Part shown: piece after piece, positions 345 to 6,827 of the stretch
Numbering within the stretch: the stretch's first letter is position 1
Layout: every line of letters starts with the position of its first letter
Sequence record: PV933157.1
Strand: one strand, 5' to 3'
Length of the DNA: 64,000 nucleotides
Source: Escherichia phage 24-32N
Notes under the pieces: model-generated
What the model was told of the DNA's origin: nothing
The model's database searches: none
The model's input: only the letters and a program-made list of their open reading frames with translations
Made by a program: the position numbers and the translations under genes

Positions 345-374
345 GACCTCCCCATCGAAGGGAGGTCTTTTTTT
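345..374 (+). terminator. Rho-independent terminator
   Basis: 8-bp GC-rich stem GACCTCCC / GGGAGGTC (345-352 / 360-367) followed by a T7 run at 368-374. Confidence 0.7.
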
Positions 375-399
375 GACTTAAACATTCTGGAGCCAGGAA

Positions 400-588
400 A
401 TGTATAAAGAGATTGCATTCTTCTCATTTTTGCTAGGTGGTTTAATAGGTGCAGGATTTGTAGCTATTTCTAATACCTACTTTGGTTCTACTCCAAACTC
501 TGTAACACAAACCCTCAAGCATGAATGTGAATTAAATATCCCTCGTAATCAAAACTGTGTAATGCAGTTCGTACCGGAGAAGAAATGA
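400..588 (+). CDS. Small hypothetical membrane protein
   Basis: ORF track; hydrophobic segment FFSFLLGGLIGAGFVAI; follows the terminator. Confidence 0.4.
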   Translation: MYKEIAFFSFLLGGLIGAGFVAISNTYFGSTPNSVTQTLKHECELNIPRNQNCVMQFVPEKK

Positions 589-845
589 ATATCCACAATC
601 TACATTTGGTTGAGAAACTGTATGAAGAATACAACGACAGCCGACAGCAATTAGCTAGTCTGAAAAAGGCCCCTTATATGCTGAAAGTAACCTTCTTTGA
701 TACGGATTTAGGGATACAAGCTCGTGCAAGCATATACCCTAAATTAGTAGCATTTTATCAAAAGAAGATTGATGACTTAGAGAAACGTCTAAAACATTTA
801 GGGGTTGACCTATCCGTATTACCCGAAGAAGAGGAAGAAGAGTGA
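585..845 (+). CDS. Hypothetical protein with acidic C-terminal tail (EEEEEE)
   Basis: ORF track; start overlaps the upstream stop, consistent with operon packing. Confidence 0.4.
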   Translation: MNIHNLHLVEKLYEEYNDSRQQLASLKKAPYMLKVTFFDTDLGIQARASIYPKLVAFYQKKIDDLEKRLKHLGVDLSVLPEEEEEE

Positions 846-1027
846 AATTAACCCAGTCTCAAATGATTTTCCTTCGTATGGTTCAAGGTGGTTCTGCTAC
901 CAGCAACCGTAATAACAAAACCGCACAGTCTCTTAAGAAGCTGGGCTTAGTACAGTTCAATACTGGTCTTGGGTGGTCATTAACCCCTACCGGAGTACTT
1001 CAACTCAATGAATTAAAGGGTAACTAA
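842..1027 (+). CDS. Hypothetical protein
   Basis: ORF track; tightly packed between neighbouring genes. Confidence 0.35.
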   Translation: MKLTQSQMIFLRMVQGGSATSNRNNKTAQSLKKLGLVQFNTGLGWSLTPTGVLQLNELKGN

Positions 1028-1357
1028 ATGAAAACTTTACTTAAAGGTATTGCAATAGCTGCACTGATAGCTTTGGCCCCAAATGCACAAGCAATTAAAC
1101 CAGAACCAATTCTGGAAGGTGCTCAGGCTTACCTGGATGACACGCGTGATGCATTCGGACAGGGGTTCTTCATGGGCAGTATGATTGCTTACATCGAGAA
1201 CACTGATAACTGTGTTCCAGATGGTATTAAGTATTCAGACATTCTGCCTAAGATTGCCAAAGTAGTTATTTATGACTCTGCAATCCTCAAATTGAAGAAT
1301 ACATCTCAAATTGTTGTGTACTCAGTACACAAGGCGTATCCCTGCACTAAATCTTAA
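1028..1357 (+). CDS. Secreted/periplasmic hypothetical protein with N-terminal signal peptide
   Basis: N-terminus MKTLLKGIAIAALIALAPNAQA-IKP has n-, h- and AxA-like c-regions. Confidence 0.5.
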   Translation: MKTLLKGIAIAALIALAPNAQAIKPEPILEGAQAYLDDTRDAFGQGFFMGSMIAYIENTDNCVPDGIKYSDILPKIAKVVIYDSAILKLKNTSQIVVYSVHKAYPCTKS

Positions 1358-1391
1358 TTAGCAATTCCATTAGCTTTAGGAGAGTAAGTAA

Positions 1392-4767: not shown

Positions 4768-4783
4768 AATTACAGGTACTCTT

Positions 4784-5173
4784 ATGACAAACAGACGAAA
4801 TGGTAAGTCTATCTTGTATGGGCTGGACTTAAGTAAACTAGAACAAACTGCAATGCTTACTTTAGGTAAAACTATGCACGACCTGGTGGAAAAGAATGGA
4901 ATTAACTCTGATGTTTATGCAGCAATGCAGGTTCTTATTCAGAAAAGATGGACTACTAGTAGACCTTTTAACACCACTTCATATATTCCACCAGAACCTC
5001 ATCTGAAATCTAAGGTAGACCAAATCATAGATAAGTTCTGGGCATATCCAGGAGAAGGTCACATGTACCTATACCTGGAGCAGTTACGAAAGAATCCCAT
5101 TACTCGTGACTTGTTCAAGGGTAAAAGCACTACTCACCACTACCCCTGGTATAGAAGAGGTAGTAAATACTAA
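4784..5173 (+). CDS. Hypothetical protein
   Basis: ORF track. Confidence 0.45.
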   Translation: MTNRRNGKSILYGLDLSKLEQTAMLTLGKTMHDLVEKNGINSDVYAAMQVLIQKRWTTSRPFNTTSYIPPEPHLKSKVDQIIDKFWAYPGEGHMYLYLEQLRKNPITRDLFKGKSTTHHYPWYRRGSKY

Positions 5174-5616
5174 TGCGTATCCCATTCCTAAGAAAAAGGG
5201 AACGAAATCCTGTTCTTTATAATAAAGGCATAGAGGATGAGTATGAACTCAACCGTAAAGCTCGTTCCTACACAACAAAATTATTTATGGGGACTAACAA
5301 CCCTGATAGATTACTGGACTTTGTTTTTGAACAAGTCTTTATCATATACAGCTTAGCTATGTCTGCTGGTTCACAAGAAGTGAGTGATAAAGCAAGACAT
5401 GCTCTCTGTATGCTCCGTAAAGAGTATGAAGCCCTCATGTATGAAGACTTGTACTCCTTTAAAGAAGAAACCGCTGTAGCGTGTTCTGTGGCTCTTACTG
5501 AAGGTGTGACAGTATTACAAGAACTACCTCGTAGTGAGTTTAAGCTGGTATACGTTCAGGTTAAGAGAATCACAGAGACGAGAAGTGGTATCACCAACTA
5601 TTTAAGGTCATTCTAA
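5173..5616 (+). CDS. Hypothetical protein
   Basis: ORF track; start overlaps the upstream stop. Confidence 0.45.
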   Translation: MRIPFLRKRERNPVLYNKGIEDEYELNRKARSYTTKLFMGTNNPDRLLDFVFEQVFIIYSLAMSAGSQEVSDKARHALCMLRKEYEALMYEDLYSFKEETAVACSVALTEGVTVLQELPRSEFKLVYVQVKRITETRSGITNYLRSF

Positions 5617-6560
5617 TGATTAAGGCAACTGTCATTGCAGATTCCGTTCACCCAGAAACAGGAACTCGTATTACTACTTTTGAATTGGTTTATCCCCGAT
5701 TCATTCACAGTGAGTTTATGACCCACCGTGTATTCAACCGCAATGCTTCAAGCAGTCGTGCTATTCCCACCGCTAAGTTCATCGAACAAGTTCGTAATGA
5801 ACCAGTGATGCCAAGTCACTGGGGTAAGAACCAGAAAGGTATGCAAGCATTTGAAGAACTATCAGAAGACCAACGCAGTGATGCAATTTTTATCTGGGAA
5901 CAGGCTGCATCCAGTGTTGCCACCTATGCTGAAATGTTGCGTCGTGGGCAAGTACATAAGCAGATTGTTAACCGTATTCTGGAACCATTCACACATATCC
6001 GTGTAGTGGTAACTTCAACAAGCTGGGCTAACTTCTATGGACTGCGTGACCACAAAGATGCACAACCAGAAATTCGTGAACTGGCTCAAGCAATGCGTAA
6101 GGCACAAGAAGAGAGTTCACCAAAAACACTATCGCATGGACATTGGCATCTGCCATATATTACTCATAGTGACCGTGTTGGGGCTTATAATTTCTGCAAA
6201 CGTAATCGAGTTACACGCGATGAACCAAGTATTGCAGAAATGTATGGATTACTTCTCAAAGTGAGTGCTGCACGTTGTGCACGAGCTTCCTATAACAACT
6301 TTGAAGGACGCCCTTCTACTATCGAAGAAGACCTCGGCTTGTTCGCTAAGTTAGTGGAAAACCAACCTATTCATGCTTCTCCAACGGAACATCAAGCTAC
6401 GCCTATGAACCTTGGTGAGAAGTACGTGAATAACATGAACCCAGTTACCTGGGAACAAGGTGTTACATCCATGGATAAAGAAGGGAATCTGTATTCAGGT
6501 AACCTGCTTCACTTTATCCAATTCCGTAAGTTAATCCCCGGTGAGACTATTACTGAATGA
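5616..6560 (+). CDS. Flavin-dependent thymidylate synthase (ThyX)-like
   Basis: THRVFNRNASSSRA resembles the ThyX RHRxxxxxS signature; sits in the nucleotide-metabolism context. Confidence 0.45.
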   Translation: MIKATVIADSVHPETGTRITTFELVYPRFIHSEFMTHRVFNRNASSSRAIPTAKFIEQVRNEPVMPSHWGKNQKGMQAFEELSEDQRSDAIFIWEQAASSVATYAEMLRRGQVHKQIVNRILEPFTHIRVVVTSTSWANFYGLRDHKDAQPEIRELAQAMRKAQEESSPKTLSHGHWHLPYITHSDRVGAYNFCKRNRVTRDEPSIAEMYGLLLKVSAARCARASYNNFEGRPSTIEEDLGLFAKLVENQPIHASPTEHQATPMNLGEKYVNNMNPVTWEQGVTSMDKEGNLYSGNLLHFIQFRKLIPGETITE

Positions 6561-6796
6561 AAAAACTAGCTCTGTACACAATGCTAACTAGTGCCTTACT
6601 CACACTAATCTTCGCATACAAAGTAGCCTTTGTATTAGAAACAGATATGCAGTTCATTAGAGCCAGCATTCTGCTCTTTGTAAGTGAAATTGGTTTGTGG
6701 TGCATTTACTACTTTGCTCGTGATTATGAAGCAATTCGTGAACATGATGAAGCAAAGGAACGTATGAGACGCTTCATTGAAGAAAATAGTAAGTAA
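6557..6796 (+). CDS. Small membrane protein
   Basis: Two hydrophobic helices (LALYTMLTSALLTLIFAY; ILLFVSEIGLWCIYYFA). Confidence 0.45.
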   Translation: MKKLALYTMLTSALLTLIFAYKVAFVLETDMQFIRASILLFVSEIGLWCIYYFARDYEAIREHDEAKERMRRFIEENSK

Positions 6797-6802
6797 ACCT
6801 AA

Positions 6803-6827
6803 GACCTCCTCCGGGAGGTCTTTTTTT
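6803..6827 (+). terminator. Rho-independent terminator
   Basis: Stem GACCTCC / GGAGGTC followed by a T7 run; same stem sequence as the terminator at 345. Confidence 0.7.

Follow-up and report, generated by a model that had tools for sequence, protein, structure and literature searches.

Two predicted intrinsic terminators with the same stem in Escherichia phage 24-32N and their counterparts in N4-like phages

The stretch of Escherichia phage 24-32N analyzed here (64,000 nucleotides of record PV933157.1, further called the window) contains two hairpins, each directly followed by a run of seven T and both built on the stem GACCTCC/GGAGGTC. They lie 6.4 kb apart, at positions 345-374 (site 1) and 6803-6827 (site 2), and their description in an earlier sequence-only reading of this DNA is exact to the base. 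The window belongs to the genus Gamaleyavirus (Schitoviridae, Enquatrovirinae) and represents an N4-like coliphage of the G7C type, its first 7 kb being 90-95% identical (megablast) to St11Ph5, IME11, ECBP1, Bp4 and about 50 further records. Every gene neighboring the two sites is on the plus strand (Table 1). Site 1 follows gp17, and site 2 follows the small open reading frame gp30.1. By synteny with N4, both sites are assigned to the middle-gene arm, 3' of the RNAPII genes gp15 and gp16. Our analysis indicates that these are, with high probability, two separate rho-independent terminators, and that the identity of their stems reflects a generic terminator design and not a copied cassette.

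Both sites have the features of intrinsic terminators, that is, a hairpin, a directly adjoining run of seven T, an intergenic position 3' of a stop codon in the sense orientation, and compensatory conservation (see below). In the stem of site 1, six of the eight base pairs are G-C; the hairpin starts 50 nt after the gp17 stop codon, and the end of the T-run is separated from the ATG of gp17.1 by 25 nt. In site 2 the GC-rich 7-bp core GACCTCC-TCCG-GGAGGTC (6803-6820) is extended by AA/TT pairing to a 9-bp stem with five G-C pairs; 6 nt separate the gp30.1 stop codon from this core, and gp31 starts about 29 nt after the site. Folded as RNA, the hairpins reach -18.0 kcal/mol (site 1, z = -3.8) and -18.5 kcal/mol (site 2, z = -4.2), with no shuffled sequence as stable in either case. 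They are the most stable among the four plus-strand terminators folded, the other two, at 4741 and 13059, having -12.5 and -11.4 kcal/mol, respectively. A bidirectional function was rejected for both sites, as the tails on the minus strand are not T-rich. No known RNA family was found at either site by an Rfam scan of positions 1-8000 (E <= 1); sub-threshold matches to CRISPR-DR63, OrzO-P, Phe_leader and Pseudomon-1 were all driven by the hairpins and were rejected.

Both sites are present at orthologous junctions in all examined Gamaleyavirus (St11Ph5, G7C, PhAPEC5, SP5M, pSb-1, phiG17). In ECBP1 both were seen through IMG/VR matches, and in Jgk1 only site 2 was seen. Moreover, both junctions carry terminators in four genera, namely Gamaleyavirus, Moovirus (Moo19), Enquatrovirus (N4) and Kaypoctavirus (KP8), and terminators are also found at the same junctions of BaqKoxi and phi1_146050. 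The sequence CCTTATC(C)TTT upstream of site 1 is common to N4, KP8 and Moo19, and ACTCCGCTATT upstream of site 2 is common to N4 and KP8; these conserved flanks establish the orthology of the sites across genera. Hence, the search for the motif throughout the genome and in relatives, proposed in the sequence-only reading, recovered both sites in the relatives, and the similarity is not limited to this one phage.

In some of the relatives the sites have already been annotated. Both are marked as terminators in the GenBank records of PhAPEC5 (NC_024786.1, by ARNold, 8001-8030 and 14315-14339) and SP5M (NC_070869.1, 9433-9478 and 15637-15677), and site 1 of G7C is marked as a stem_loop (9074-9096). 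The annotated elements are orthologous to those of the window, with the same stem, T-run and flanking genes and with loops differing by a few bases; the records are silent on the identity of the two stems. The sites are thus ordinary ones, known as terminators from the annotation of related genomes.

The stem sequences vary between the genera. In Moo19, site 1 is GACCTCCC-TAAAT-GGGAGGTC and site 2 is AAAGACCTCC-TACG-GGAGGTCTTT. In N4, GCCCTCC-TAT-GGAGGGC at site 1 corresponds to TTGCCTCC-TACAT-GGAGGCAA at site 2, so that the 5' arms to be compared within this genome are GCCCTCC and TTGCCTCC. KP8, BaqKoxi and phi1_146050 have TGCCCACC-CTTGC-GGTGGGCA at site 1 and GACCC(G/A)C-TTAG-GTGGGTC at site 2, the arms of KP8 being TGCCCACC and GACCCGC. 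In the Pseudomonas phage Zuri, the stem at site 1 is unrelated, and the hairpin at site 2 has no T-run.

Pairing is retained through these changes. In the alignment of site 1 from eight phages, 96.8% of the cells are paired, and both sides have changed in four of the eight base pairs; the covariation score was matched by none of 500 shuffles, and the pairing collapses when the partners are slid against each other. At site 2, the Klebsiella phages KP8 and BaqKoxi have T-A replaced by C-G and C-G replaced by A-T or G-U, with two pairs changed on both sides. The overall pairing count for site 2 is too low, because the MAFFT alignment sets the N4 row one column off register (the N4 pairs were read by eye). 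Within Gamaleyavirus, on the other hand, the stems are constant and the loops vary: CATCGAA, TATTGAA, TATTAAA, TAATAAA and, in phiG17, TA-GAAA-TA at site 1, and TCCG or TTCG at site 2. The position and structure of the sites are thus under selection, while the sequence is free to change. This is the expected signature of terminator hairpins.

Table 1. Positions of the terminators, genes and motifs considered (window coordinates, unless another phage is named).
Feature	Phage	Position	Strand	Description
gp17, 3' end	window	1..294	+	Hoc-like head decoration protein; TAA at 292-294; assigned by megablast from the annotated gp17 of St11Ph5
Site 1 terminator hairpin	window	345..367	+	8-bp stem GACCTCCC/GGGAGGTC, 7-nt loop CATCGAA
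Site 1 T7 tract (U-tract)	window	368..374	+	directly 3' of the stem
gp17.1	window	400..588	+	first gene 3' of site 1; own Shine-Dalgarno sequence GGAG about 7 nt 5' of ATG
Third terminator	window	4741..4767	+	AAGCCCAC/CTAACCC/GTGGGCTT, then T4; between sites 1 and 2
gp30.1	window	6557..6796	+	small open reading frame 3' of thymidylate synthase gp30; gene upstream of site 2
Site 2 terminator hairpin	window	6801..6822	+	9-bp stem AAGACCTCC/GGAGGTCTT, 4-nt loop TCCG
Site 2 T7 tract	window	6821..6827	+	first two T able to pair with A6801 and A6802
gp31	window	6857..7075	+	N4 gp31 homologue; first gene 3' of site 2; own Shine-Dalgarno sequence AGGAGGG
CCTCC/GGAGG-core terminator	St11Ph5, early region (L135)	3025-3060		GAGTCCTCC-ATTA-GGAGGGCTT, then CTATTTTTT; between two early genes
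gp30.2	G7C (L122)	7093-7347		
gp30.2	pSb-1 (L125)	7788-8012		
gp30.2	phiG17 (L126)	501-725	-	
T-rich/GG motif	window	302-317, 22015-22030, 24895-24910, 60781-60796		
T-rich/GG motif	N4 (L128)	14790, 29478, 9866		
T-rich/GG motif	KP8 (L129)	~2935, ~9805		
T-rich/GG motif	Moo19 (L127)	~745, ~1120, ~9005		

The sequence-only reading had interpreted the common stem as a duplicated or conserved, re-used module. Conservation is supported by the orthologous junctions, whereas duplication or re-use is not. The pattern GACCTCC-N0-12-GGAGGTC has exactly two matches in the window and none in 100 dinucleotide-preserving shuffles. Two copies each are found in G7C, ECBP1 and PhAPEC5, and the early region of St11Ph5 (within about 9 kb that lie outside the window) contains no GACCTCC/GGAGGTC copy, the only related element there being a CCTCC-ATTA-GGAGG terminator. 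The loops of the two sites are unrelated, differing in both sequence and length, so that the common part consists of the stem and the T-run. Local alignment of the 40-nt flanks of site 1 with those of site 2 showed no excess of similarity over shuffled sequences, either upstream (p = 0.24) or downstream (p = 0.38).

These data are relevant to the possibility that a duplicated or mobile cassette has been copied to a second place, there serving as a marker or a mediator of modular gene exchange. The model for such an element is the promoter/stem-loop cassettes (PeSLs) of T4-type phages, reportedly described by Arbiol et al. in 2010. The PeSLs are said to be, likewise, repeated intergenic stem-loops beside accessory genes that come and go, but with an extended shared sequence including a promoter and with many copies, in contrast to the 7-bp stem and T-run in two copies seen here. 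Besides the identical 7-bp stem, the T7 tract and the next G common to both sites, a cassette would be consistent with the accessory genes that come and go beside both sites (gp18, or sie, and gp30.2) and with the tandem repeat of a ~155-bp unit ending with the site 2 terminator in phage CU10EC (both described below). Moreover, a preprint on G7C-like phages puts forward another terminator-like stem-loop as a boundary of recombination (10.1101/542787). However, the similarity ends at the stem and T-run, each genome has just two copies, and the resolved junctions of the insertions and deletions are in the T-rich/GG motif and in Shine-Dalgarno leaders, outside the GACCTCC stems. In addition, the orthologs of both sites in N4 and KP8 are terminators built on other stems, and therefore the sites had been terminators before their stems became the same. 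The copied cassette is largely refuted by the absence of flank homology, and we regard it as very unlikely.

The stem itself is generic. At least 120 matches to GACCTCC-loop-GGAGGTC-T5 were found in IMG/VR; those listed include more than 100 unrelated contigs of all sizes with different flanks, and the commonest form among the matches listed is GACCTCC-TTCG-GGAGGTC. GACCTCC/GGAGGTC, C-rich in the 5' arm and G-rich in the 3' arm, is among the commonest designs of strong terminators. Identity of the stem at both sites is confined to Gamaleyavirus and Moovirus, N4 sharing CCTCC only and the Klebsiella phages 5 nt at most. The longest common substring of the two 5' arms is 7 nt in Gamaleyavirus and Moovirus, 5 nt in N4 and BaqKoxi, and 3 nt in KP8 and Zuri.

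For such a comparison, the dinucleotide shuffle is too lenient a null, because terminator stems are not random sequences. The 5' arms of terminators in this phage family are strongly C-rich (GCCCAC, GCCCTC, ACCCTC, GCCCCTC and similar). As a terminator-aware null, a first-order Markov model was trained on 52 unique terminator 5' arms of the family. Under this model, the probability that any pair shares at least 7 nt is 0.17, 0.25 and 0.36 for 9, 11 and 14 terminators, respectively, and a single random pair shares at least 5 nt with probability 0.086. Sharing is also observed elsewhere: separate terminators have 6-mers in common three times in N4, and an 8-mer is shared in Zuri. Given the probability of about 0.25 and the sharing in N4 and Zuri, the identical stem is at the upper end of the ordinary distribution; the stem pair is real, yet it is not clearly beyond chance given terminator composition. 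A pool of IMG/VR terminators was also considered as a chance model (0.012 per pair, or about 0.5 per genome) and set aside, the estimate being probably inflated because the pool comprises only 43 unique non-focal terminators, with some of the contigs related. Terminator stems fill a small space of C-rich/G-rich sequences, and thus identical 6-8-mers are expected between unrelated terminators; a stem shared by terminators in one genome should not be taken for duplication.

Several observations weigh against two independent, ordinary terminators. For a single pair chosen beforehand, the probability of sharing at least 7 nt is 0.0057, and the match becomes unremarkable only after all pairs are counted. 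Sharing between the 5' arms within lineages (7, 7, 5, 3, 5 and 3 nt) is slightly greater than between lineages (mostly 3-4 nt), and this excess leaves room for some concerted evolution. Finally, a literature search for Term-seq or RNA-seq data on N4 or any Gamaleyavirus found none, and therefore termination itself, the polymerase stopped (RNAPII or the host RNA polymerase) and the efficiency at either site are predicted from sequence.

In particular, the stems could be kept alike by gene conversion, possibly of short patches, or by sequence-specific reading of GACCUCC/GGAGGUC. The reader could be RNAPII, an RNA-binding protein or an antiterminator. The stem might also have a role related to the ribosome, since GGAGG in its 3' arm is a perfect Shine-Dalgarno core and its 5' arm resembles the 16S anti-Shine-Dalgarno sequence. 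Concerted evolution would agree with the identity of the stems in Gamaleyavirus and in Moovirus despite diverged flanks, with CCTCC/GGAGG at both sites of N4 and CCCAC/GTGGG at both sites of BaqKoxi and phi1_146050, and with the third CCTCC-ATTA-GGAGG terminator in the early region of St11Ph5. However, the 5-nt core common to N4 and Gamaleyavirus is the same as that within N4, and therefore simple shared ancestry suffices. The match within the genomes of KP8 and Zuri does not exceed 3 nt, the CCCAC core of the Klebsiella phages is also that of the unrelated third terminator, and a 5-nt match is not rare for a random pair under the Markov model. As for sequence recognition, the unrelated phage contigs carrying this stem (more than 100 among the IMG/VR matches listed) cannot all share one factor, and a ribosomal role is opposed by the presence, in both downstream genes, of their own Shine-Dalgarno sequences 25-35 nt past the hairpin. 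We therefore consider maintenance of the stem by conversion or recognition improbable. If it were true, the stem sequence, beyond its stability, would tune termination or antitermination at both boundaries in Gamaleyavirus and Moovirus.

Another possible role of the hairpins, alone or combined with termination, is that of middle promoters, with a hairpin extruded from DNA recruiting RNAPII as reported for the N4-like Pseudomonas phage LUZ7. The middle promoters of LUZ7 are GC-rich hairpins, the stem having at least 6 bp and the loop 3-4 nt, and transcription starts with a G about 15 bp further downstream (PMC9163698). Site 2, with its stem of 7-9 bp and loop of 4 nt, resembles this description. 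At both sites the T-run is followed by a G, and a gene starts directly downstream. On the other hand, the loop of site 1 is 4-7 nt long and freely variable among relatives, the stem sequences change freely between genera, and U7 right after the stem is a signature of terminators and not of the LUZ7 promoters as described. Moreover, Gamaleyavirus has N4-type gp1 and gp2 (according to the annotation of the St11Ph5 early region only), which speaks against use of the Drc-type cofactor. In N4 itself, the T7-like heterodimeric RNAPII (gp15/gp16) transcribes the middle genes together with gp2, and its promoter is not a hairpin but an AT-rich sequence at -7 to +2 (PMC4496689). Promoter function of the two sites thus appears highly doubtful. 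An early hairpin promoter of the N4 virion RNA polymerase (vRNAP; criteria from PMC3715699) was rejected, the loops being too long (4-7 nt) and the sites being in the middle region, 3' of gp15 and gp16.

Two separate intrinsic terminators remain the best explanation. By analogy with N4, the region would be transcribed mainly by the phage T7-like RNAPII. A hairpin followed by a U-run is a class I terminator for T7-type polymerases and the canonical terminator for the host RNA polymerase, so the sites are expected to act on both. In the nascent RNA, a very stable GC-rich hairpin followed by U7, with its weak U7:dA hybrid, would destabilize the elongation complex and release the transcript; the same hairpin may then shield the 3' end of the mRNA from exonucleases, stabilizing the upstream message. 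Site 1 would close the gp17 unit, and site 2 the gp30/gp30.1 unit. As to the origin of the identity, each stem would have drifted by compensatory changes, the Gamaleyavirus/Moovirus lineage happening to land on GACCTCC/GGAGGTC at both sites.

A third strong terminator, at 4741, would split the 6.4-kb interval into two transcription units. It is kept in all examined Enquatrovirinae, and the records of PhAPEC5 and SP5M already list it as a terminator. Together with sites 1 and 2, it may cut the left arm into units, with read-through setting downstream expression.

Like the intrinsic terminators of E. coli and its phages (trp and thr attenuators, the class I T-phi terminator of T7), the two sites have a C-rich/G-rich stem of 7-9 bp, a short loop and U7. 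The position after the stop codon on the gene strand is also the same, and site 2 has a partial upstream A-tract. No difference in sequence from the standard terminators is seen; what differs is the expected polymerase, which here would be the N4-type heterodimeric RNAPII. LUZ7 is a member of the same virus family. ONT-cappable-seq located 61 termination sites in this phage, 14 of them predicted to be intrinsic, and hairpins likewise split the early/middle arm into overlapping units; termination efficiencies and read-through vary widely and depend on the stage, and a tested subset was active in a reporter trap (PMC9163698). LUZ7, however, represents another genus with another host, and its terminators have no sequence relationship to those considered here. 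The result confirms two strong predicted terminators dividing the middle-gene arm of a G7C/N4-like phage, which in itself matters little; in practice, such compact and very stable terminators (about -18 kcal/mol, U7) may be used as parts.

Among the neighboring genes, gp31 of the window is 52.7% identical to gp31 of N4 (tblastn). Accessory genes are found next to both sites in some phages. The gene gp18 ("superinfection exclusion", sie) is upstream of site 1 in St11Ph5, N4 and Moo19 and absent from the window; annotation suggests the same upstream position in IME11, PGN829.1 and U1G. Comparison of window positions 292-345 with St11Ph5 (L001) 3285-3722 shows that the own upstream terminator of gp18, AGCCCTC-loop-GAGGGCT, is also missing from the window. 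In St11Ph5 the gp18 cassette is flanked by imperfect direct repeats of about 20 nt, TTTCTTTTTGTGGTTATAGCCC and TTGCTTTATTTGGGGTTATAAACCC, which belong to a T-rich motif ending with GG. The window junction looks like a crossover inside this T-rich/GG repeat, upstream of the site 1 hairpin.

At site 2, the extra small gene gp30.2 directly follows the terminator in G7C, pSb-1 and phiG17, and it is absent from the window (6828-6856), St11Ph5, PhAPEC5 and SP5M. Its junction is located after GGTTTCAATTA, between similar Shine-Dalgarno leaders (ACTGTCCCAGGAGGACTTATG), outside the hairpin. In CU10EC (PQ435408.1, L134), about 155 bp comprising the end of gp30.1 and the site 2 terminator are repeated in tandem approximately four times at 8340-9200. 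One copy of this array has an inverted hairpin (GACCTCCCGGAGGAGGTC followed by TTATGTTTA), another has a mutation in the stem (GGGAGTTC), and every junction is right after T7GG. Either the rearrangement is genuine and associated with the hairpin, or the array is an artefact of assembly.

The T-rich motif ending with GG (consensus roughly TTTNYTTGGKKT, for example CTTTGTTTGGGGTTAT) is found just after stop codons in plus-strand intergenic regions of several genera, and a terminator hairpin often follows 5-45 nt further on. A scan with its position weight matrix yielded nine plus-strand matches in the window, compared to 3.6 expected (the maximum in shuffles being 10), and five in N4, compared to 2.1 expected; two of the latter are intergenic, intergenic regions comprising 9% of the sequence. 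The motif could be an AT-rich middle promoter of the N4-type RNAPII or another regulatory site. One of its window occurrences, TTTCTTTGGTTTG, is in the 16-nt loop of a hairpin at 22010-22043 (GGAGTC...GACTCC, 6-bp stem, no T-run); the ATG at 22056 follows this hairpin after about 15 nt.

Two adjacent tRNA genes are encoded on the plus strand of the window at 26442-26599. One of them is a tRNA-Ile with the anticodon AAT; for the other, whose anticodon loop is unusual, ARAGORN gave no assignment. The pair is within a stretch of about 2 kb poor in open reading frames (~24.8-26.8 kb), just preceding probable bidirectional terminators at 26845, 27787 and 28757. The latter two, AAGCCCTC-CTAGT-GAGGGCTT (27787-27807) and AAAGCCCCTC-TAGT-GAGGGGCTTT (28757-28780), are palindromic terminators readable on both strands and are located at the meeting point of the rightward middle and the leftward late genes. 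They are probably bidirectional terminators similar to those mapped in LUZ7.

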